This document shows positions 1 through 19,567 of a stretch of 24,000 nt of DNA, piece by piece (position 1 is the first letter of the stretch; every line of letters starts with the position of its first letter). The DNA is taken from assembly GCA_036635475.1 (NCBI GenBank), contig JAVWQH010000014.1, positions 26,594 to 50,593 on the forward strand, read 5' to 3'. This DNA is from Oscillospiraceae bacterium. GTDB taxonomy: Bacteria > Bacillota > Clostridia > Oscillospirales > Ruminococcaceae. The notes beneath the pieces are model-generated. The model was not told the origin of the DNA. It saw nothing but the letters and a program-made list of their open reading frames with translations, and did not search any database. The translations under genes and the position numbers were made by a program.

Positions 1-344
1 TCCCATATTTTCTAAGTCCTTTACTCATATGCCAGCGAACTCCTGTTTTTAAGAAATCTATTTCCTTTCCCTGTATAATACGAAGTAGACTTGCAAAATC
101 GGAATACACTTTTTTTACATCACCGTCAGTTGTATATTTGTTCTCTATACCTGTGGCGACATTGGTTATCTCACCAATTCGAGTGTCTCTTGTATTCATT
201 TCATACTTTACAATATTATCTTCATTATATTTAACCTCTTTAACAGTAACTTTATCTTCAATGTCAATAATAATAGGCTTGTCTATTTTTGAATTGACAA
301 TAATCGGGTCATTACATAAATAGACAGAGTCTCCATCGGCGTCC
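1..344 (-). CDS. RdRP/YonO-like two-barrel single-subunit RNA polymerase, exon 2 (3' partial, runs off the window start)
   Basis: The minus-strand frame is open from 344 to 1. After splicing it reads (M)DADGDSVYLCNDPIIV...TRIGEITNVA...GKEIDFLKTGV. It carries the DxDGD metal-binding motif and an EIDFLKTG motif resembling AVDFxKTG of PF05183-type RdRPs. The + strand ORF 138..323 is its antisense shadow. Confidence 0.75.
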
Positions 345-686
345 CAATTTGGGCTATATCTTTAGCATGTCTATAAAATAGATTTAGCTATATGGCGCTT
401 CCAAATGAAGAATTTCACTTCAAATGTACTCCCTTGCGGGATAGTCTCTTAACTTTAATAATTGGATTTAGGTGTGAAGTTTTCTGCTTTCAGATTTCTT
501 GCATAAAATCCTTTCTACCTAAATCCAATTACTCTTAGCACAGGATAACAAAATTGCTTCCCCTGTTAGCACAATTCCTATATATCATTTCCTATATATC
601 CTCAACGTGAATCGCACACCCTATTTTTATAGGTTCACCATATTTATTACCTTACAGTTTCCCATAAGGAGGACAGACGCCACTTT
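345..686 (-). ncRNA. Group I self-splicing intron (IA/T4-td-like core, ORF-less, 342 nt) interrupting the polymerase gene
   Basis: All elements read on the minus strand. P1: exon 1 end GGUGGGAU pairs with intron nt 13-20 GUCCUCCU, with a U.G wobble at the splice site. P10: exon 2 start GGACGCC pairs with intron nt 6-12 GGCGUCU, contiguous with P1. P/Q-like core: GCUAACAGGGGAAGC (570-556) and AUCCUGUGCUAAG (546-534). There is a 14-bp perfect hairpin (530-517 with 473-460). R-like element GUUAAGAGACUAU (453-441). CCC-GCAA-GGG tetraloop hairpin (440-431). S-like element AAGAUAUAGCC (362-352), 10/11 identical to the classical AAGAUAUAGUC. The terminal G is the complement of c345. Confidence 0.8.
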
Positions 687-2296
687 ATCCCACCTTGTTG
701 CGGTAAACTCAAATCATACATATTAAGCATCACAACATCTTGATTTTTAAAATGTGACAAATATTTTTTAGTAGTATCGCAAGACACTAAAGTCACAGAG
801 TTAACTTCCGACGGGCACACTAGGGGGGATCTAAACGATACCGCCTTACCTTTTGGTAATGTTTCGCAGTAAAACTCATGCTCCTTTAAACACCCAACAA
901 CTTCTCTCCCTGCAACATATTCTAAATATCCAATCATATCTCCAACAACAGTATGGTAAAAGCCGCTACAATAAATCTTTCCTATTTTTGCTTCTTGGAT
1001 TGACTTCTTAAGCTTCCTATGGATAAATTGCTTTACCGCAACATCTTTAAGCATAATATCATTAGTTAGAGCAGCTTTTAAATAATTACTTTCTGCTTCA
1101 TAGCCATCAGTATTATTAATGCCCATAAATTTATATGTATAAAATTTGTCGCCTTTGACGATTTTCTCAAATAAATCGGTAGTGTACTTAGCAATCGAAA
1201 TAATTTTACCATCATTTTTACTGTCTAAAATATCATATTTAGGATAAGACTTGTCGTTAAACCACTCTACATATTTTGGATTTGTTAAATCTAAGCATTG
1301 TAAATATTGAAAATTCATTCTTGCCATTAAGTTTATATTTTTAATATGATGGCTATATTTACTAATACCGAGAGGAAATTTATGTTTTTCTACAATTTCA
1401 CAATATTTATTCCAAGCTTCGTTGCCATATTCACTTTTGAATAATTTATGACCTTTAAACATTGAGGTGTTCCAAATACAATCTATTTCATCTACTTTAT
1501 GTACTTTCCCATAAACGTCAGTTATTTCTGTAATGCCCATATCCGCAAATATCGATTTGAATGGCACAAAAACACTATAACCCTTCATAAAAGGTTTGCG
1601 TATTTGCTCACCGATAGCAAGGTAGTCTAGTCCTAAAACCTCTGTTATTTTTTCTGAAAACTCTTTTTCATGGCAACCGCAGCCATCAAAAGGGGAGATT
1701 GTTATATCACGGTATCCTTCTTCTATTTCACGAGATTTATAGGTCTTATTTTCGCCAGCTACTTTATCTATAAACGGTATTTCTTTTTCAACTACATACT
1801 TAATTAACTGGTTTTTAATTACCTTTTCATACTCCCCAACAATAACTATTTTTGGATTATAATTTTTAATCAACGTACAAGAACTAAAAGGTAAGCATCT
1901 TTGTGACTCATATTTAGATATTACACATTCATCAATCTTAATTTCCAATTGAGTTATAAAATATAACTCCTCAAAAATATCCTCACACACAAAAGCTGTA
2001 ATTCCGTCTTTTGCTTGAGACTGAGATTTCCCAAAGCGTAGATATCGTTTGCCATTAAAAACAAAACCACTCCGTATTATGTATTCTAAATCATCTTTAG
2101 TTTTTGGATTTTTTTTAGCCTCAACCAAAATCATTTCTGAAATATAATTAGCGGGGACACCACGTATTCTTTCTATTTGGTCAAATAGCAGAGAATCTGT
2201 TTGTTTTATCAAGTAATCATTTGAGATAAGATAATTATTATCTGCATTTACAATAAATTCCGAATTGATAATTTCACGAATAGGTATTTTTACCAT
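687..2296 (-). CDS. RdRP/YonO-like two-barrel single-subunit RNA polymerase, exon 1
   Basis: This is the 549-aa track ORF 647..2296 minus its last 13 codons, which are intron read-through. Exon 1 contains KAVSFRSPLVCPSEV (compare RNPxxHPGD of the RdRP family). It ends ...MYDLSLPQQGG directly before the intron. The spliced junction reads QQGG-M-DADGD. Confidence 0.8.
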
Positions 2297-2388
2297 TTCA
2301 TATTGCTTTATTTGTATTTCTTTTCACCATCCTATTATTATGTATATTTGAAAATTCCAAGAGTTCCCTTTCTATATTATTTGCGATT

Positions 2389-2535
2389 TTAATTATTTAC
2401 TTCGTGTAATTGAATATTGTATATGTCTACACATTCCTTCACGAGTGAATGATAATACTGCTCCTTAGATATGAAATCACCAGACATATGATATTTTACA
2501 TTTGTTAGATACTTAGATTGTTGTAATTTAATCAA
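2389..2535 (-). CDS. small hypothetical protein (48 aa, TTG start)
   Basis: AAAGGAG lies 8 nt upstream of the TTG. The ORF reads LIKLQQSKYLTNVKYHMSGDFISKEQYYHSLVKECVDIYNIQLHEVNN*. It fills the gap between two minus-strand genes and is below the track length cutoff. Confidence 0.35.
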   Translation of the reverse strand: MIKLQQSKYLTNVKYHMSGDFISKEQYYHSLVKECVDIYNIQLHEVNN

Positions 2536-2562
2536 CTGCAATTCTCCTTTTAAAAATTATAA

Positions 2563-3270
2563 TTAATATAGTTGTGTTTGAACACTGTCCTCGTGTAAAG
2601 CTTTGTTATTCAATAAAAATTCTTCACCCCATTTCAGTTCATCTTCCCAGTTGCCAGTTTTGTCTACAAACAGTGTCACATCAGTGTGCCAGTTATCATA
2701 TTTGTCTTTGTATCGTGGCATTGGGCGAGAAACAATGATATTTAAACTTTCCAATGCGGTAATGCAGGCACTGACAGTTTTAGGACTGAGAGCAGTATCG
2801 TCTGCTATAGTTTTAATTTGACGGTAGAAGAACTCTGGTTTCTTCTTGTGAGCATTGTTTTGCTGGTACTCACTGCGTCGAAGCTTGTTGACACGTATGT
2901 AGCAAAGAATTAATAGTAGTTTGTCGTAGGAAACATTACGTAGCTTTGATTTATATTCACGCATTTTCTGTAATTCGTTTAATGAAACAATAGCAAATGA
3001 ATTAGCTGTATCAAATTTTTCGGAATTTAACTGCAAAATACAAACTTTATATCCAGAATATTCACCAAACTCCTTTATAAAATATTCAAGTCCTTCCATT
3101 GTGTCAAGAATAGTAACGAACTTTCTGTTTATACCGTTTTTGTTTTTATCTGGCTTATAACCGCTGGACACCACTAAATCGTGTAACGTAATATAAGATT
3201 TGTCATCTAATGAGCGACGAATAAAAAGATATACAAAAACGGATAATCGCATTGGAAATAAATTTTTCAT
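2563..3270 (-). CDS. hypothetical protein, probable winged-HTH DNA-binding protein (replication-organizer or regulator-like)
   Basis: 235-aa ORF co-oriented with its neighbours. The segment IKTIADDTALSPKTVSACITALESLNII looks like an HTH. The family is not recognised. Confidence 0.6.
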   Translation of the reverse strand: MKNLFPMRLSVFVYLFIRRSLDDKSYITLHDLVVSSGYKPDKNKNGINRKFVTILDTMEGLEYFIKEFGEYSGYKVCILQLNSEKFDTANSFAIVSLNELQKMREYKSKLRNVSYDKLLLILCYIRVNKLRRSEYQQNNAHKKKPEFFYRQIKTIADDTALSPKTVSACITALESLNIIVSRPMPRYKDKYDNWHTDVTLFVDKTGNWEDELKWGEEFLLNNKALHEDSVQTQLY

Positions 3271-3462
3271 CTCAATTATTTCTCGTGGTACTATTACAAA
3301 TTTTTCATTTATGGATTTTCGTTTAATAATTTAATCCCTCCAATTAATATCTTACTGACCGAAATGTAAGTCTATTTTACAAAACAGCATAATTATACTG
3401 ACCATTCAGTCAAGAATTTGTCCGTTCATAAACAACATGGACTCTTATAAACAAAAGATTAC

Positions 3463-4281
3463 TTATGCAACTGGGTTTATTCTGTATTTTTCTTTCATTT
3501 TATTTTCCACATATATTAATCCAAATTCAGTAATACAAATGTCACGATTTATAATTGCATATTTACTATCTTTTGCAAACTGCGTTATTTTATAAACTTT
3601 TGATTTAGGTTTTGGCTTTTCTATAATATTTAACTCTGTTAACATTTTATTTACTTTTAATAATGTGGTGAAGTCTTTTGGATATTCATAATTAAGCAAT
3701 TCTTGTAGACACCGAAGTGAGTAAAACCGCACGTCTTTTCGATATCCTTTTTCCTGATTTAGAATGTAATCTCTTGCAATTTTTGGATTTTTCTTTTTTA
3801 TCAAAATATCATCTTCTGTAAGTTGATACTCGCAATTTAATAAAAACGGAGACGAGCGGGATAGTCTATATACCATAGATACGCTTGTTTTTATATCAAC
3901 CATGGGCAACATACTACGATGCCCAGATATAATTTCGGACATAGTATCTTCAGTGTTGTATCCATTGAACAAGGCATTATACTTTAGCACATATGCGTTT
4001 TCTCTTAGTATGAGTACAGTCTTTAATTTTAATTTAGATGTGTACTTAAAATTACTTTCAGTAATGGGGAATAGTTCTTCAATTGAATAATTAAAAACAG
4101 ATTCTCCATATTGGTTGTAGTCATCTTGTAATGATTGAATAAAATGTGTGTTGTCTGACAAACTTAATCTGTGTTCATTCCATCTTCTATCAATATTTAG
4201 AGTTTCACCTATGTAAACTTTATTGTTCATTGTATTTGTGATTTTATATATTCCCACTTTATTTTGCAATTTTATCCTCAT
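3463..4281 (-). CDS. GIY-YIG family homing endonuclease (free-standing)
   Basis: The N-terminus GIYKITNTMNNKVYIGETLNIDRRWNEHR carries the GIY...YIG...R...H/E motif spacing of I-TevI/Seg-type nucleases. A long basic C-terminal half is typical of DNA-binding modules. There is no SD, which is common for HEGs. Confidence 0.85.
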   Translation of the reverse strand: MRIKLQNKVGIYKITNTMNNKVYIGETLNIDRRWNEHRLSLSDNTHFIQSLQDDYNQYGESVFNYSIEELFPITESNFKYTSKLKLKTVLILRENAYVLKYNALFNGYNTEDTMSEIISGHRSMLPMVDIKTSVSMVYRLSRSSPFLLNCEYQLTEDDILIKKKNPKIARDYILNQEKGYRKDVRFYSLRCLQELLNYEYPKDFTTLLKVNKMLTELNIIEKPKPKSKVYKITQFAKDSKYAIINRDICITEFGLIYVENKMKEKYRINPVA

Positions 4282-5114: not shown

Positions 5115-5376
5115 TATTTATTCTCTTTTTAACTTTGTGTTTATTTATGTTCTGTATGTGTGATAATCCAAATGAAGAAATTCGTACTTCTAAAATTCTT
5201 ACTTATATATAACCTACCTCAGATTAGGGTATACGATCTTTTATTTTTGCTGATGGGGATTTAATCTGTCGTCATTGGTATTGCAGTAAAAATTGCAGTC
5301 AAGATTATTGAATTGCTCCGCTGTGATTGGTTTTAGATTCATGTTTTGGTTTTGTCCCTTCAGTTTTGCATTTAAA

Positions 5377-5415
5377 GTATGTGTTGTTTATATTATTTCT
5401 ACCGATAGAATATTT
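5377..5415 (-). repeat. 39-bp perfect direct repeat, copy 1 (contains the dispersed 25-nt motif)
   Basis: GTATGTGTTGTTTATATTATTTCTACCGATAGAATATTT is identical to 5910..5948. It overlaps the last 8 codons plus the stop of CDS 5388..5609. Confidence 0.95.
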
Positions 5416-5609
5416 ATGTCTAACATTTTAGCTAACAAATAAGTTATATAACCATTGATTAAAATACCATTTTCATCAATTATAATAGAGTCTCTCAATT
5501 CATGTGTCATTTTATATAGACCATATTTACTTGCTAGTTTGCTAGTTGAAGGCAAATTATTTTTAAAATTATCGGGAATGATTATCTGTGATATATCTAT
5601 TTTCTGCAT
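5388..5609 (-). CDS. small ParB/Srx N-terminal-domain-like protein (73 aa)
   Basis: AAAGGAA SD. SIIIDENGILINGYITYLLAKMLDINILSVE resembles the ParB-N core (vvd.ng.liDGyhR..Aak.lg). The assignment is tentative. Confidence 0.5.
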   Translation of the reverse strand: MQKIDISQIIIPDNFKNNLPSTSKLASKYGLYKMTHELRDSIIIDENGILINGYITYLLAKMLDINILSVEII

Positions 5610-5642
5610 TTGTTAATTCCTTTACATTGTTTTAATAATTTC

Positions 5643-5706: not shown

Positions 5707-5734
5707 TAAAAAAAGCCTCTATAATATAGAGGCT
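5707..5734 (-). terminator. rho-independent terminator (minus strand)
   Basis: 9-bp stem 5714-5722/5726-5734 (AGCCUCUAU/AUAGAGGCU) with a 3-nt loop. An A7 run at 5708-5714 is a U-run on the minus strand. Confidence 0.75.
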
Positions 5735-5909
5735 AAATAGTAATTTATTCTATTACAATCTAAAAAATAAATAGGTATCAACACACAACGAAATTAAAGG
5801 CATTTTAAGACGATTAATATTTTAATGTCAAATTACATTAAACAGATATATAAATTAAAAATAGGTACAGTATTTTCAACATAAGCACAAAATGTAAGTG
5901 ATATTTTCG

Positions 5910-5948
5910 GTATGTGTTGTTTATATTATTTCTACCGATAGAATATTT
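5910..5948 (-). repeat. 39-bp perfect direct repeat, copy 2 (relic gene 3' end in non-coding DNA)
   Basis: Identical to 5377..5415 and 533 bp away. On the minus strand it still reads ...NILSVEII*, with no ORF attached. Confidence 0.95.
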
Positions 5949-6581
5949 GAATATATTATTAAAATTTATTTGAGTATATTGTCATCTTCGGTAAGATTGA
6001 AATAATATGAAAATATAATTATCAACAATAGGTAGATGAATTAGACTATATTAGAGAAATAACAGTTAATTTGGTATATAAATATTTAAGTTTACTTGCT
6101 ATTAAATTTATTATTTATTTGTCATTTATTTAAAATATTGAAATTTATATGAGGGTTCGGATGAAGTTCCCATATTTAATATGTTTTTTTCGTATTATAG
6201 AAGTTATATTTAAGTATTTATATGGTTTATTTGAGAATTACATATATATTTAATTTATATTTTATTTGCATTAAGTTAGTATTTATTATGGTTTTGCCGA
6301 AGTGAGTACCGAAGAAAATGGAGTTATTTTAGGAGAATTTTGTAATATTTTATTTTGAAATTTTATTTCGGGATGGTGGAAAAGTTGTGTGAGTGAAGAT
6401 GAACTACTATGAGGTTTTTGCTCTACTGTACCACCTTGTAAAATGTAAATACACCCCACTTGAACCAATGATTAATGCACGTTTATTATATCAAGTAATT
6501 TATCATACATAATAAATGACTTAATATGCTGAATTTCAATAATAATAGCAATGCAACTTTAATAATAGCGGGAAATAGCAT

Positions 6582-6636
6582 AAAAAAGCAACTGTGTATA
6601 CTGTATATATACGGTATACACAGTTGTTCGTTTTTT
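6582..6636. terminator. bidirectional rho-independent terminator
   Basis: 12-bp perfect stem 6589-6600/6615-6626 (CAACTGTGTATA/TATACACAGTTG). It is flanked by A5 upstream (6582-6586) and T6 downstream (6631-6636). Confidence 0.75.
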
Positions 6637-6769
6637 CATTAACGATAATCATTCCTATTAAGCTTACAATTATATCCAATTCATATATTTAATTAATCAG
6701 CCTTGAATCAAACCACCACTATATACAATTTACACAAAAAACTATCCATATTTTCTACACAATCCAGCA

Positions 6770-6798
6770 TTGCAATATGCTATACAACGCTATATAAT
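6770..6798 (+). promoter_or_regulatory. sigma-A-type promoter for the RHH-sigma operon
   Basis: TTGCAA (6770-6775), a 17-nt spacer, then TATAAT (6793-6798). The track ORF start at 6770 is the TTG of this -35 box, so it is not a real start. Confidence 0.65.
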
Positions 6799-6820
6799 TA
6801 TATACATAAAGGAGGTGTCT

Positions 6821-6979
6821 ATTATATCACAGCAGGTCAATACCCGCTTGCCTGATGCGCTCTATCAAAAACTAAAATCATATGCCGACAGTCAATATAT
6901 TGATGTTACAACAGTTATTAAAATGGCACTTGTTAAATTTTTAGATGAAGTAAACACAGACAGCGACAATAAAAAATAA
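6821..6979 (+). CDS. ribbon-helix-helix (CopG/Arc-like) DNA-binding protein
   Basis: QQVNTRLPDALYQKLKSYADSQYIDVTTVIKMALVKFL fits an RHH strand-helix-helix. AAGGAGG lies at 6809-6815. The only in-frame codons at SD distance are ATT (6821) and ATA (6824), so a non-canonical start is likely. The track ORF 6770..6979 is in the same frame. Confidence 0.6.
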   Translation: MISQQVNTRLPDALYQKLKSYADSQYIDVTTVIKMALVKFLDEVNTDSDNKK

Positions 6980-6980
6980 C

Positions 6981-7019
6981 GGTGTACCCTATACACCGAC
7001 TAAAGCAACAGGGTACACC
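6981..7019 (+). promoter_or_regulatory. 10-bp inverted repeat between the RHH and sigma genes (operator or RNA hairpin)
   Basis: GGTGTACCCT (6981-6990) and AGGGTACACC (7010-7019) form a perfect inverted repeat with a 19-nt spacer. No U-run follows. Confidence 0.4.
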
Positions 7020-7107
7020 ACCACAACAAAACCGTAACGGCTTTGCTAAATTTATTATAGCATACCTATAACCGGTTTACAACAAAAAATGAAAGAGGTA
7101 AACCACA

Positions 7108-7833
7108 ATGACAACTAAAACAACAACCGCCACCCATGACATTATTGAAGCCCTATCACGCAAGGCAACAGCCGGAACACTTAAACGGATATATGATGCA
7201 AGTGGCAACGATAATATACGCAAGCTGCGTACCGCCTTGCAACACGATTACAGCATACTTGATAATAATCTATCTGATACAATAAGCGACGCATACGATT
7301 GTCACTTAACCGCCTATAACTATCTACTAGAACAGTATAACAATGGTTTGACCGCTGATAATACAATTACAACCACCTTAAAAAATGGCACTGAAAAAAC
7401 CCGTACTATATATCAATGGGCATGCGTGGCAGTCCGCAAATACATTTATAGTAACAAGTCTATTGAGAATAACGGGAAATATATATATATTGAGGATATG
7501 GCCACTGAAAAAATGGACTCTAACTTAGCATTAGATTGTGAATATATCCGCTTAAATAAATACAGTGACTTAGCAAGTGACACACAATATGGAATAAGCG
7601 GTGCATACAATGATTATATAACTTATAATGATATTATTGCAAGTCTTAATCTAACACATAGACAATTAACAGTTGTTACAATGCGTATGCAAGGACTATC
7701 AACAGTCGCAATAGCGGATAAGCTACAAGTGTCGCAACAAGCTATTAGCAAAACATTAGCACAGGTGCAAACGTACGTTTCTACTCAATATCCTGATATG
7801 GTCAGACTTTTTAAAACCGCTAGAAAAGCATAA
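7108..7833 (+). CDS. sigma-70-family RNA polymerase sigma factor (phage/MGE-type)
   Basis: AAAGAGG SD. The C-terminus LTHRQLTVVTMRMQGLSTVAIADKLQVSQQAISKTLAQVQ is a typical region 4.2 HTH. DAYDCHLTAYNYLLEQ and TIYQWACVAVRKYIY are region-2-like. Confidence 0.7.
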   Translation: MTTKTTTATHDIIEALSRKATAGTLKRIYDASGNDNIRKLRTALQHDYSILDNNLSDTISDAYDCHLTAYNYLLEQYNNGLTADNTITTTLKNGTEKTRTIYQWACVAVRKYIYSNKSIENNGKYIYIEDMATEKMDSNLALDCEYIRLNKYSDLASDTQYGISGAYNDYITYNDIIASLNLTHRQLTVVTMRMQGLSTVAIADKLQVSQQAISKTLAQVQTYVSTQYPDMVRLFKTARKA

Positions 7834-16512: not shown

Positions 16513-16775
16513 TCAATGAACAGTTTGTTGTGCATTTTGAGTAGTAAATGCTCCGTGAATTTCACGTACAACAATAGCTTGAGTCTTAGCTGACTACGTT
16601 GGATATAATATCACACCATAGAATGATGCTCTAGTTCTATGCAACTGTGCAGGCTCTGTAAAAGTCTTGAAAAATGACGAGGCGGTCAACCTGATTTGGA
16701 GATTTAATCTCAAATTATTTCCAACATTAGCGAAGGGCAACAACTCTGAAAGGAGAACGAAACTTGAGAGTATTC
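16513..16775 (+). ncRNA. omega-RNA / HEARO-like structured RNA upstream of IscB (exact 5' end and guide not determinable)
   Basis: A 251-nt ORF-free gap that abuts or overlaps the IscB start. GC is 40% in 16621-16680 by hand count. Helices: 16525-16533/16566-16574 (9 bp), 16617-16623/16635-16641 (7 bp) and 16699-16703/16707-16711. TTGTTG (16525-16530) can alternatively pair with CAACAA (16738-16743) next to the SD, which would form a pseudoknot-like fold. Confidence 0.6.
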
Positions 16776-18053
16776 GTTAAAAATCAAAGAAACGAGCCGC
16801 TTATGCCATGCTCAAATAGAAAAGCAAGAAAATTATTAAAAGAAAATAAAGCAAATATAATAAACTACAATCCTTTTACAATTCAATTATTATATTTTAC
16901 AGGCGAAACTAGACAAGAAATAAATGTTGGAGTTGATACTGGTGCGAAATATATTGGGATTGCAATCACATCGTATGACAAAATTTTAGCAAAGGGAGAA
17001 ATTGAACTAAGACAAGATATATCGTCTTTGTTAATTACAAGATCTGCACTAAGAGGCTCTCGTAGGAACCGAAAGACACGTTATCGCAAAGCAAGATGGT
17101 TGAACCGGAAAAGACCACTTGGGTGGGTTCCACCAAGCGTCCAGAGCAAGCTAAATTCAACATTTATGTGGATTGATAGGTTTGTATCGCTGGTACCTAA
17201 TGCCCAATTGAGCATTGAAGTTGGAAAATTTGACATTGCGAAAATGATTAATCCAAATATAGAAGGTGATGATTATCAAAATGGAGATACATGTGGATAT
17301 TATAATGTAAGGTATTTTGTGTTTGCGAGAGACAACTACACTTGCCAAGTGTGTAAAAAGAAAAATAAAATCTTAAATACACATCACATTTTATATCGTA
17401 CAATTGGAGGTACAAACAGGGCTAATAATTTAATAACGGTTTGCACCGATTGCCACACAGCAGAAAATCACAAATGCGGTGGCGTATTACACAATTGGAT
17501 GTTAAAAAAGAAAAAAGTCAAGAGATACAAAGAAGCGACGTTTATGAATATTGTAAGAAAGCGAATTTTTGAAAAATACCCTAATGCAAAAATCACTTAT
17601 GGATCAGAAACTTCTCCAAAACGAAAAAAGTTACAGTTAAATAAAACACATTACAATGATGCAATTGCAATTTGTGGGATTAATCAAATTAAACTTAATA
17701 TAGACGATTATTTTTATTATAGACAATTCAGGAAAAAGAAACGATCGTTGCATGAAGCGACACCGCGAAAAGGATTAAGCAAAAAGAACACAAGTAGTTT
17801 TAGGAACACTAAGAATGTAAAATTTAGAAACGGATATCATTTAAACGACAAAGTAAAATTTGAAGATCAGATTGGATGGATATCTGGGTTTTCAAGTAAA
17901 GAATGTTTTTTAAGAGATATAAATGGAGAAATAATTAAGACGAAAAGACGGAAAAACAATATAAATGTAAATATGAAAGAAATAGTGCTCGTTACTCATA
18001 ATAATGGATGGATATGCACAAACAAAGTATCTAAATAGACTGTGGTTTAATCA
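16516..18053 (+). mobile_element. possible non-autonomous IS200/IS605-family IscB element (no TnpA); boundaries speculative
   Basis: TAATCA lies immediately left of the RNA region (16510-16515) and again at 18048-18053, 10 nt after the IscB stop. In both places it is followed by (A)TGAA. The element is inserted between two SD-led operon genes. Confidence 0.25.
16764..18038 (+). CDS. iscB: IscB-type RNA-guided nuclease (PLMP domain, split RuvC, bridge helix, HNH)
   Basis: TTG start with AGGAG 8 nt upstream. Motifs in order: EPLMPCSNRKARKLL (PLMP), GVDTGAKYIGIA (RuvC-I), RGSRRNRKTRYRKARWLNRKR (Arg-rich bridge / RRXRR) and SIEVGKFD (RuvC-II). These are followed by CQVC...THHILYRTIGGTNRANNLITVCTDCH (HNH), THYNDAIAI (RuvC-III) and a C-terminal beta-rich tail. 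All catalytic residues appear intact. Confidence 0.85.
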   Translation: MRVFVKNQRNEPLMPCSNRKARKLLKENKANIINYNPFTIQLLYFTGETRQEINVGVDTGAKYIGIAITSYDKILAKGEIELRQDISSLLITRSALRGSRRNRKTRYRKARWLNRKRPLGWVPPSVQSKLNSTFMWIDRFVSLVPNAQLSIEVGKFDIAKMINPNIEGDDYQNGDTCGYYNVRYFVFARDNYTCQVCKKKNKILNTHHILYRTIGGTNRANNLITVCTDCHTAENHKCGGVLHNWMLKKKKVKRYKEATFMNIVRKRIFEKYPNAKITYGSETSPKRKKLQLNKTHYNDAIAICGINQIKLNIDDYFYYRQFRKKKRSLHEATPRKGLSKKNTSSFRNTKNVKFRNGYHLNDKVKFEDQIGWISGFSSKECFLRDINGEIIKTKRRKNNINVNMKEIVLVTHNNGWICTNKVSK

Positions 18054-18475: not shown

Positions 18476-19567
18476 ATGAAATTTACAATAAATACATATG
18501 ATTTTAAATCAGCAATGGAGAAAGCATACAAATGTGTCAATAAAAAGAGTGCAATGCCAGCATTACGAAACTTACTATTACATATTGAGAAAGGCAACAG
18601 TTACATAGTCGGCACAAATCTTGATAACTGGGTAGTTTCAAATGTACAAATCGACAATGTAGTAGAGCCGGCAGATATTGTTTTCGGAGATACAGACTCG
18701 CTGTTTAAAGCAATGAAATTCTTCAAGGGATTTGAGATTTCCTTTGACGTGCAAGACAGCAAAGTGGTTATCAGTTGCGGTGGGAAACAAACATCACAGA
18801 TATTCTCGGATAAAGACGAGTTTCTTCCAATACCCGAAATAGATATGGCAACAGCACAAGAATATAAATATAATATCAAAGACCTAAAAGAGCGTTTTAA
18901 TCTAGTCAAGTATGCAACAAGAAAAGACAATGTGAAACCAATCTTTACAGGTATACACTTTGACGGTACCAATATGGTTGCTCTTGACGGGTACAGAATA
19001 GCCATGAATACATCTAATGAACTTAATGTATCTGTACCATTTACGGCTCAATTAAACGGCTTGGCGTTGATGTGTGACGTGCTTAATAGGGATATAAACA
19101 TAGTGACAAACAATAAGTATATCAGCGTTTCTGATGGCGATACAACTGTAATGAGTAGACTGTTTGAAGGTGTTTATCTTGATTATAAGCAAGCAATTCC
19201 AAACAATGAAAATGAAGTGCAGGTTGATATGGCGGAATATTCAGAAACACTAAAATATTTTAAAGCGTTCAAAAAGTCTGGCAACAAGTGTCAAATAATT
19301 GCGTGGCTCAATGATAGTTTAATGTTACTTGGAACAGATAATTGTAGTGAGCTTAGCACACTTAAAGGGGAATTCCAAGACGCAATTGGATTCAACAATC
19401 AATATATGCTAGATGCCTTGACGCAATTCAAAGCGGAAAATGTAAAGTTTAATATGAGTAACAGTGTTACACCTATTGTTATCAGAGATGATGAGGGCAA
19501 TTTGGCATTAGTGTTGCCTATAAGACTTGCCGACGAAGTAGACGATAAAATGAAAAAATCTGCATAG
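18476..19567 (+). CDS. dnaN: DNA polymerase III beta subunit-like sliding clamp
   Basis: 363 aa, the length expected for a clamp. MKFTINTYDFKSAMEKAYKCV...PALRNLLL, KPIFTGIHFDGTNMVALDGYRIAM, RLFEGVYLDYKQAIP and TPIVIRDDEGNLALVLPIRL match conserved DnaN blocks. AAAGGAG SD. Confidence 0.8.
   Translation: MKFTINTYDFKSAMEKAYKCVNKKSAMPALRNLLLHIEKGNSYIVGTNLDNWVVSNVQIDNVVEPADIVFGDTDSLFKAMKFFKGFEISFDVQDSKVVISCGGKQTSQIFSDKDEFLPIPEIDMATAQEYKYNIKDLKERFNLVKYATRKDNVKPIFTGIHFDGTNMVALDGYRIAMNTSNELNVSVPFTAQLNGLALMCDVLNRDINIVTNNKYISVSDGDTTVMSRLFEGVYLDYKQAIPNNENEVQVDMAEYSETLKYFKAFKKSGNKCQIIAWLNDSLMLLGTDNCSELSTLKGEFQDAIGFNNQYMLDALTQFKAENVKFNMSNSVTPIVIRDDEGNLALVLPIRLADEVDDKMKKSA

Follow-up and report, generated by a model that had tools for sequence, protein, structure and literature searches.

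What interrupts a phage RNA polymerase gene inside its catalytic motif, and can a complete enzyme still be made from it? The question arises from a 24,000-nucleotide (nt) stretch of DNA assigned to an Oscillospiraceae bacterium (assembly GCA_036635475.1, contig JAVWQH010000014.1, positions 26,594 to 50,593), hereafter the window. The gene and its interruption lie on the minus strand; coordinates are those of the window, and intron nucleotides are counted from the intron's 5' end. A 549-aa, ATG-initiated open reading frame (ORF; 2296..647) ends in LPQQGG followed by IKWRLSSLWETVR and a stop 13 codons past the GG. Its residues read ...NMYDLSLPQQGG up to the point of divergence, after which come 13 unrelated codons and the stop, and the polypeptide made from unspliced RNA would terminate ...QQGGIKWRLSSLWETVR. 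The same reading frame is picked up again at 344 with DADGDSVYL (DADGDSVYLCNDP...) and runs off the window. An initial annotation had described this break and the resumption of the frame 342 nt later, with which our ORF calls and translations agree, and had proposed that positions 345-686 are an ORF-less group I intron. Our analysis leads to the same reading: the interval is very probably an ORF-less group I intron in an essential RNA polymerase gene of the YonO/RdRP family, carried by a phage present in an Oscillospiraceae-labelled gut metagenome-assembled genome (MAG).

Removal of the interval would join two exons. Exon 1 (687..2296) comprises codons 1-536 and the AT of codon 537, ending ...CAA CAA GGU GGG AU, and exon 2 (1..344 within the window) begins G GAC GCC GAU GGA GAC, giving M-DADGD. 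Exon 2 leaves the window and continues in NCBI contig JAVWTQ010000066.1 (L030, assembly GCA_036667615.1), which matches the window without a difference over 2296 nt (100% identity); with the remainder taken from that contig, the spliced protein is 858 aa long, and both exons are intact across all 858 codons with no other lesion. Joining 687 to 344 yields a Pfam RdRP match (PF05183; E 4e-12, score 46.1 bits, cut-off 23.8) that covers residues 63-645 in a single stretch and thus spans the junction at residue 537. The product is colinear from end to end with an uninterrupted 864-aa 'RNA-dependent RNA polymerase' (gp3) of Thomasclavelia phage TR-TP1 (29% identity, E 7e-95), in which NGCDFDGD stands opposite GGMDADGD. 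BLASTP against the N-terminal part of phi3T YonO gave E 8e-13, with GGMDADGD opposite QFDNDGD. YonO is an experimentally characterised single-chain two-barrel polymerase whose aspartate triad is essential and catalytic (PMC5467207). The Pfam match across the junction and the match to YonO support assignment of the host gene to the YonO/RdRP family of two-barrel single-subunit RNA polymerases with a DxDGD metal-binding motif, as the initial annotation had suggested in calling it a two-barrel phage polymerase. A search of PDB sequences with the spliced protein returned nothing meaningful, and megablast of window positions 1-4000 against phage genomes found no match.

Uninterrupted relatives show where the insertion sits. 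We retrieved 11 such alleles, three from IMG/VR phage contigs (L026-L028, protein 72-76% identical) and eight from Lachnospiraceae or Bacillota MAG contigs (L033-L040, 60-69%), and in all 11 the motif reads ...PQQGG[M/A]DxDGD...: a single residue, M or A, always separates GG from the triad. Their empty site reads ...GGTGGTATG/GAT... (here and below a slash marks the insertion or splice point), and L026 has GGT ATG GAT where the predicted splice gives GGG AUG GAC, from a ligated junction of GGUGGGAU/GGACGCC. The comparison bears out the proposed insertion site, and with it the prediction that splicing would restore the frame as QQGG-M-DADGD.

The site is also occupied elsewhere: among the relatives retrieved it is filled in three and empty in 11. 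Besides the window copy, two IMG/VR phage contigs, L029 and L041 (IMGVR_UViG_3300045988_173931), carry introns at the identical nucleotide position, with the shared consensus ...CAAGGUGGGAU/AAAGU[A/G]GCGUCUGUCC ... CCAAA[UU/AC]G/GGA[C/U]GC[C/U]. The L041 intron is 270 nt long with a minimal P6 (CAC-AAAAA-GUG), and that of L029 is 808 nt long, its P6 holding a 162-aa ORF with HNH_3 and NUMOD4 domains (an I-HmuI-like homing endonuclease). The cores of these introns are 78% identical to the window copy and the flanking exons 43-61%. Stop codons in all three frames of 345-686 (342 nt) bear out the ORF-less character of the interval, and the same-site introns support its predicted exact boundaries and QQGG-M-DADGD as the spliced product.

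Covariation provided a further line of evidence. We compared 11 members of the wider intron family, with the interiors of P6 removed, and scored the named structure against slid registers and 500 shuffles. Cells were paired in 91.3% of cases against 34-47% when slid, both sides had changed in 31 of 51 pairs against 9-16, and the covariation score was 0.503 against 0.08-0.12; none of the 500 shuffles matched the observed value on any measure. The covarying structure takes in the core helices P3-P8, including the pseudoknot arrangement of P3 and P7. When the three same-site introns were taken alone, with P1, P2, P8 and P10 added to the structure, 98.7% of cells paired and 17 of 82 pairs were compensatory, against 0-2 in slid registers; these pairs fall in P10, P2, P3, P7.1, P7.2 and P8, among others. 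In P10, columns 16/281 are G-C in the window and A-U in L029 and L041, the wobble base of the exon-2 Ala codon (GCC/GCU) tracking intron nt 6 (G/A), and columns 19/278 are G-C or G.U across the three. Far above the slid controls, this covariation, together with the same-site introns, backs the group I identity put forward in the initial annotation.

The intron itself (345..686) starts AAAGUGGCGUCU and ends CCCAAAUUG, and its RNA has a minimum free energy z-score of -3.8. The single internal guide GGCGUCU-GUCCUCCU is present at intron nt 6-20 as described initially. Its first part (675-681, GGCGUCU) pairs at 7/7 positions with the first seven bases of exon 2 (338-344, GGACGCC) as P10, and this strand lies in the loop of P1, where exon GGGAU (687-691) pairs with guide GUCCU (670-674) over 5 bp read from the sequence, with a U687.G674 wobble at the 5' splice site. 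P1 had been drawn with 8 bp; the U.G pair at the splice site is present in the sequence. The longer helix contains one U.C mismatch and was cut to 5 bp because intron nt 18-20, at its distal end, are part of P2, which is formed by nt 18-25 and covaries. P2 (650-669) is a hairpin, CCUUAUGG-GAAA-CUGUAAGG, with compensatory changes in 4 of 8 pairs among the three same-site introns.

P3 joins 636-642 (UAUGGUG) to 391-397 (CGCCAUA), that is, intron nt 45-51 to nt 290-296, with both-side changes in 5 of the 8 pairs of the tested helix among the 11 members. Between its 5' strand and J3/4 (566-568, UAA) sit two family-specific elements: PX, a hairpin at 620-633 (covariation in 4/5 pairs), and PY, a 9-bp helix (609-617 with 569-577; 6/9 pairs) that encloses the PZ hairpin (580-599; 5/6 pairs) with its conserved loop AGGAAAUG. 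The best-known group I introns are not known to have a counterpart at this place. P4 (561-566, ACAGGG, with 540-545, UCCUGU) aligns to the Rfam P4; five of its six pairs never vary and every cell pairs in the 11 members. With the P5 hairpin (548-557) it makes up the region 540-568, in which the P- and Q-like elements of the initial annotation, GCUAACAGGGGAAGC and AUCCUGUGCUAAG, are found. P6 (459-531) is an extended hairpin of 73 nt with at least 15 bp and an interior stem (-22 kcal/mol); the initial annotation had noted a 14-bp extension hairpin.

The R- and S-like elements AGAGACUAU and AAGAUAUAGCC named initially are likewise present, as the strands of P7, which crosses P3 as a pseudoknot: 441-448 (G(A)GACUAU, the R element with its bulged A) pairs with 351-359 (AUAUAGCCC, the S element). 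Aligned to the consensus GACUA / UAGUC, the G-binding site G(A)GACUAU / AUAGCCC has a G-C pair flanked by the bulge. The outer pair of P7 is G-C in three and A-U in eight of the 11 members, and both sides have changed in 2 of 7 pairs. P7.1 (431-440, CCC-GCAA-GGG; covariation in 3/3 pairs) is the GCAA tetraloop hairpin noted from the start, and P7.2 (402-426) has nine positions, a conserved loop UGAAAUU and a UU/UU internal loop (6/7 pairs). P8 (363-390) consists of UAGC...GCUA closing UCUAU-UUU-AUAGA, and in its basal stem a G-C pair is replaced by C-G, a compensatory change, in both L029 and L041. The intron ends in a six-nt tail (345..350, AAAUUG), whose last base, the expected terminal G, is the omega-G at 345. 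Both omega-G and P10 pairing with the 3' exon are therefore in place. Subgroup IA is defined by two extra helices, P7.1 and P7.2, that separate P7 from the 3' strand of P3 (PMC3984707); both are present here and covary, which places the intron in subgroup IA, with a phage IA2-like character.

The sequences show the anatomy, the homology, the covariation and the colinearity of the spliced product; that the RNA really splices, how efficiently, and whether protein cofactors are needed is inferred. The mechanism proposed here follows from this anatomy and from established group I chemistry. The pre-mRNA would fold into P1-P10, and an external guanosine would dock at the G-C pair of P7 and attack after U687, the partner in the U.G wobble of P1 (GGGAU/GUCCU). 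The terminal G345 would then take over the G site, and the 3'-OH of exon 1 would attack past G345, with exon 2 positioned by the 7-bp P10. Ligation would give ...CAA CAA GGU GGG AUG GAC GCC GAU GGA GAC... and an 858-aa polymerase with its metal-binding triad intact.

Several observations weigh against this reading. With RF00028, the Rfam group I model, nothing reached the gathering threshold, and in permissive mode the score was 14.9 bits where gathering requires 50, so that the model scan proposed initially gave a full-length alignment at a sub-threshold score. That threshold is set by curation and does not describe a property of the RNA. That alignment runs over the whole model (333..620), including GUUAAGAGACUA and AAGAUAUAGCC. 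Its blocks place ACAGGGGAAGC...GUUAUCCUGU in P4 and P5 and GCUAAG at the start of P6, and set AAAGUUAAGAGACUA against consensus AgGUUCAaAGACUA and AAGAUAUAGCC against consensus AAGAUAUAGUC; it also has a 42-nt insertion where subgroup IA introns have P7.1 and P7.2. The low score is uninformative because the model also misses annotated relatives: at the gathering threshold it found none of seven related intron-bearing loci (L006, L002, L003, L007, L022, L029, L041), an annotated SPO1-type intron among them, and its weakness for phage introns has been noted (PMC11878797). The P3 that the Rfam alignment implies (GUGCU before J3/4 with AGCGC) was rejected, because the helix of nt 45-51 and nt 290-296 covaries in the 11 sequences; in L029 and L041 the 5' segment of the Rfam pairing changes to CGGC together with its PY partner and not with the 3' segment. 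P1 is invariant across the three same-site introns and for that reason lacks support from covariation. P9 and P9.0 are absent: the 3' strand of P7 has a conserved AUAUAG, past which only 8 nt follow (CCAAAUUG), and a by-eye check of the first 60 nt of exon 2 revealed no hairpin conserved across the three alleles that could serve as an exonic P9 substitute. The P7 pair adjoining the G-binding G-C pair is A.C in the window copy only, being A-U in the other 10 of 11 members. Lastly, the databases were searched for a protein 100% identical across the junction and yielded none, and thus neither an assembled spliced transcript nor a full-length protein.

Some of these points would also be expected of a decaying intron, group I by descent but splicing poorly or not at all, in a polymerase gene that is a pseudogene or weakly expressed. 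The A.C mismatch unique to this copy, the joint absence of an endonuclease ORF and of P9, and the missing database record of a spliced product are all in keeping with it. Yet the exons bear no lesion, and pairing in P10 and the remaining helices is maintained by compensatory changes, a pattern that implies selection on the RNA. An A.C pair in a helix is often tolerated. The short, P9-less tail recurs in L029 and L041, the former with its HNH ORF intact, whereas other family members have a P9 region of 40-60 nt. Given an intact endonuclease gene in one of the three introns, and pairing that persists elsewhere in all of them, we infer that the short tail is a trait of the lineage and not of decay, plausibly offset by the long P10. 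Decay is thus an unlikely account of the locus.

A genuinely split gene, in which an N-terminal polypeptide ending ...QQGG and a C-terminal one beginning DADGD assemble and the spacer is never spliced, has precedents in annotation: in the c-st genome GenBank lists CST179 and CST177 as 'YonO-homolog N-ter only / C-ter only', the PHROG family phrog_25339 is a protein family that ends at this point, and split RNA polymerase subunits are known in jumbo phages (PMC7598289). Here, however, the stretch from the last stop to DADGD has no in-frame ATG, GTG or TTG (the first canonical start is an ATG about 50 codons downstream), and prediction gave neither a sigma-70-like promoter nor an intrinsic terminator for the coding strand within 345-686. 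The spacer is moreover a covarying ribozyme core, close relatives make one continuous protein across the point, and the c-st gap has group I signatures and a frame-restoring junction of its own (NGMDMD/GDAV). We regard a split gene as highly improbable, and we give equally little credence to some other insertion, be it an intein, a group II intron, an insertion sequence or miniature inverted-repeat transposable element, or translational bypassing. An interrupted catalytic motif is indeed also the usual location of inteins, but an intein is excluded because stops occur in all frames; Rfam gave no group II match, the interval has no transposase ORF, and at 342 nt it is far longer than the 50 nt skipped in T4 gene 60, the known case of bypassing. 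With the group I core positively identified, the structural evidence has already refuted these readings.

Positions 345-686 contain no homing endonuclease ORF, so the intron cannot home by itself. A remnant of the L029 HNH ORF was sought in the P6 hairpin of the window, and the best local alignment fell below the shuffle mean. Since a same-site relative carries an I-HmuI-like HNH ORF in P6, the window copy most likely belongs to a lineage from which the endonuclease ORF was lost, or in which it was never acquired. P6 alleles of three kinds (with an endonuclease, with a long hairpin, and minimal) beside a majority of empty sites fit the usual cycle of invasion and endonuclease loss. A more tentative proposal, which we hold to be possible though not probable, is that the same-site introns are a natural variant without P9 and P9.0, in which a 7-bp, co-evolving P10 selects the 3' splice site, and that the DxDGD codons are a two-point homing hot spot whose introns and HNH endonucleases are used by Firmicutes phages against intron-less competitors. 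Such use of an intron and its HNH endonuclease against an intron-less competitor has been shown for PhiPA3 against PhiKZ.

The surroundings of the gene supply the phage setting. Other genes of the window code for a sliding-clamp-like protein, an Ant-like protein and free-standing endonucleases of the GIY-YIG and HNH types, and we take the window to be phage or prophage DNA. A 272-aa free-standing GIY-YIG homing-endonuclease-like gene (PF01541 8e-8; PHROG homing endonuclease) occupies 3463-4281 (-), two genes upstream of the polymerase; its product could act on nearby genes. At 16764-18038 (+) a 424-aa protein combines an RRXRR domain (2e-55) with an HNH endonuclease domain and adjoins the sliding-clamp-like gene (18476-19567). 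Beyond window position 1, JAVWTQ010000066.1 has at 5723-7623 an IS200/IS605-type Y1 transposase and a 443-aa ORF, about 1.1 kb downstream of the polymerase stop, and the YonJ-like gene that follows this pair suggests an SPbeta-like late-gene module. No second core of the intron family was found elsewhere in the window.

Outside the window, the intron has a wider family. The 5' domain, with PX and PY/PZ the part of the family most conserved in sequence, has blastn matches of 73-85% identity to introns in SPO1-like and Twort-like DNA polymerase genes, in an Enterocloster phage gene and in yonO of phi3T and other SPbeta-like phages. The SPO1-like match is a GenBank-annotated spliced coding sequence with a homing endonuclease, the Enterocloster match adjoins an I-HmuI-like ORF, and a 17-nt core pattern retrieved 17 IMG/VR loci.

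Related interruptions occur in other YonO-like genes. In c-st (L002, AP008983.1) an ORF-less stretch of about 335 nt (~5300-5634) follows the 'YonO-homolog N-ter only' coding sequence, between CST179 and CST178; it has the group I signatures CAACGACUAC and GGUAUAGUCUAG, a P9-like tail and a frame-restoring U/...G junction, ...AUGGAUAUGGAU/...AACG/GGAGAUGCA, that gives NGMDMD/GDAV. It looks like an unannotated intron rather than a split gene. The polymerase gene of Enterocloster phage CB473P3 (L003, OP172757.1) is interrupted twice by family introns (~2345-2835 and ~3060-3560), at NGCDFD/GDAI and after ...QQNELD, and is annotated only as a 501-aa hypothetical protein; in the related phage PMBT24 (L004) the gene is uninterrupted. 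In phi3T (L007, KY030782.1) a family intron of about 400 nt (2459-2873) divides yonO into phi3T_60 and phi3T_59 some 90 codons past the catalytic triad, and by blastn yonO is likewise split in many SPbeta-like phages (Goe11, Goe14, SPR, SPbetaL3-7); we found no mention of this intron in the SPbeta literature searched. L041 has, on the reverse strand, a second family intron about 390 nt downstream of the first (...LLRLYQG/KEIDSIKTG...), making two in one gene. None of the introns in c-st, CB473P3, L022 and phi3T, nor the second in L041, is annotated as such. The site used in the window (site A, GGGAU/GGAC, 687/344) and the neighbouring site B (...GAU/GGAG, 335/334) are 10 nt apart, each after GAU and before GGA, and would therefore offer similar P1 and P10 partners. 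One intron lineage might have shifted between the two sites; the intron of the IMG/VR contig L022, which occupies site B, is closely related to that of the window.

The main value of recognising the intron is for annotation. Gene callers break the polymerase up into two ORFs, one of 549 aa for the N-terminal part and one of 273 aa for the C-terminal part (the latter in NCBI a 'hypothetical protein' of an Oscillospiraceae MAG), and the same mis-annotation affects c-st ('YonO N-ter only / C-ter only'), phi3T_60/59 and Enterocloster CB473P3; such splitting has even yielded a PHROG family of exon-1 fragments. Recognition of the intron restores an 858-aa RNA polymerase with its catalytic triad intact. 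Because RF00028 misses all seven related loci at its gathering threshold, Rfam-based genome screens will systematically miss this family of phage introns, which the general model fails to detect as a whole. At one site, the endonuclease-bearing, ORF-less long-hairpin and minimal alleles form a natural series that illustrates the gain and loss of homing endonucleases, and the P9-less core with its long P10 is a candidate compact ribozyme, a mildly interesting structural variant with extra helices after P3.

The novelty of the locus is modest. That group I introns occupy active-site codons in essential genes of phages is textbook knowledge (PMC3984707, PMC12908238). A putative group I intron borders conserved aspartates in the virion RNA polymerase beta-subunit gene of PhiPA3, gp210 (Birkholz et al. 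2024, PMC11620839), and an intron-encoded LAGLIDADG endonuclease has been drawn in the transcription gene block of crAss-like phages (PMC7886860). The initial annotation knew of no description of an intron splitting the active-site loop of a two-barrel polymerase. For yonO and YonO-like genes this holds, in that a literature search of incomplete coverage found no report; more broadly it does not, given the published PhiPA3 intron and the unannotated family introns in public sequences. What the locus adds, modestly, is the YonO-type polymerases as a further kind of phage gene in which group I introns have colonised the active site.

The PhiPA3 gp210 intron is one close counterpart, being a putative group I intron in a phage two-barrel RNA polymerase gene beside conserved aspartates, and L029 also shares with it an encoded HNH endonuclease. 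It differs in belonging to a multisubunit enzyme of a Pseudomonas jumbo phage, where the beta subunit and not the DxDGD loop is hit, whereas the window copy has no endonuclease. The introns of c-st, CB473P3 and L022 also interrupt the DxDGD codons of a YonO-like gene, but 10 nt further downstream (DxD/GD), while that of phi3T lies about 90 codons downstream; all of them have a P9 region, and those of L022, CB473P3 and phi3T belong to the window's intron family.

The window intron is of one RNA family with the SPO1/SP82-type introns of Bacillus phage DNA polymerase genes (here that of phage Adastra) and the related Twort-like introns, sharing their GUGAAC...GGUGU...AGGAAAUG...GUGCUAACAGGGGAA 5' domain, their P4, J6/7-P7 and P7.1/P7.2 architecture, and relatives with I-HmuI-like HNH ORFs. 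It departs from them in its YonO-type host gene, its lack of an ORF, a tail of 8 nt against 40-60 nt and an unusually long P10 (7 bp). The IA2 introns of T4 td, nrdB and sunY and of Twort orf142 carry an ORF in P6, have P7.1 and P7.2 separating P7 from the 3' strand of P3, possess conserved R and S elements, and interrupt conserved codons of essential genes. As far as the known structures and the Rfam alignment go, the window family is like these in P7.1/P7.2, in the R and S elements, in the placement of ORFs in P6 and in its insertion in such codons, and unlike them in its two extra covarying helices, PX and PY/PZ, between P3 and J3/4.

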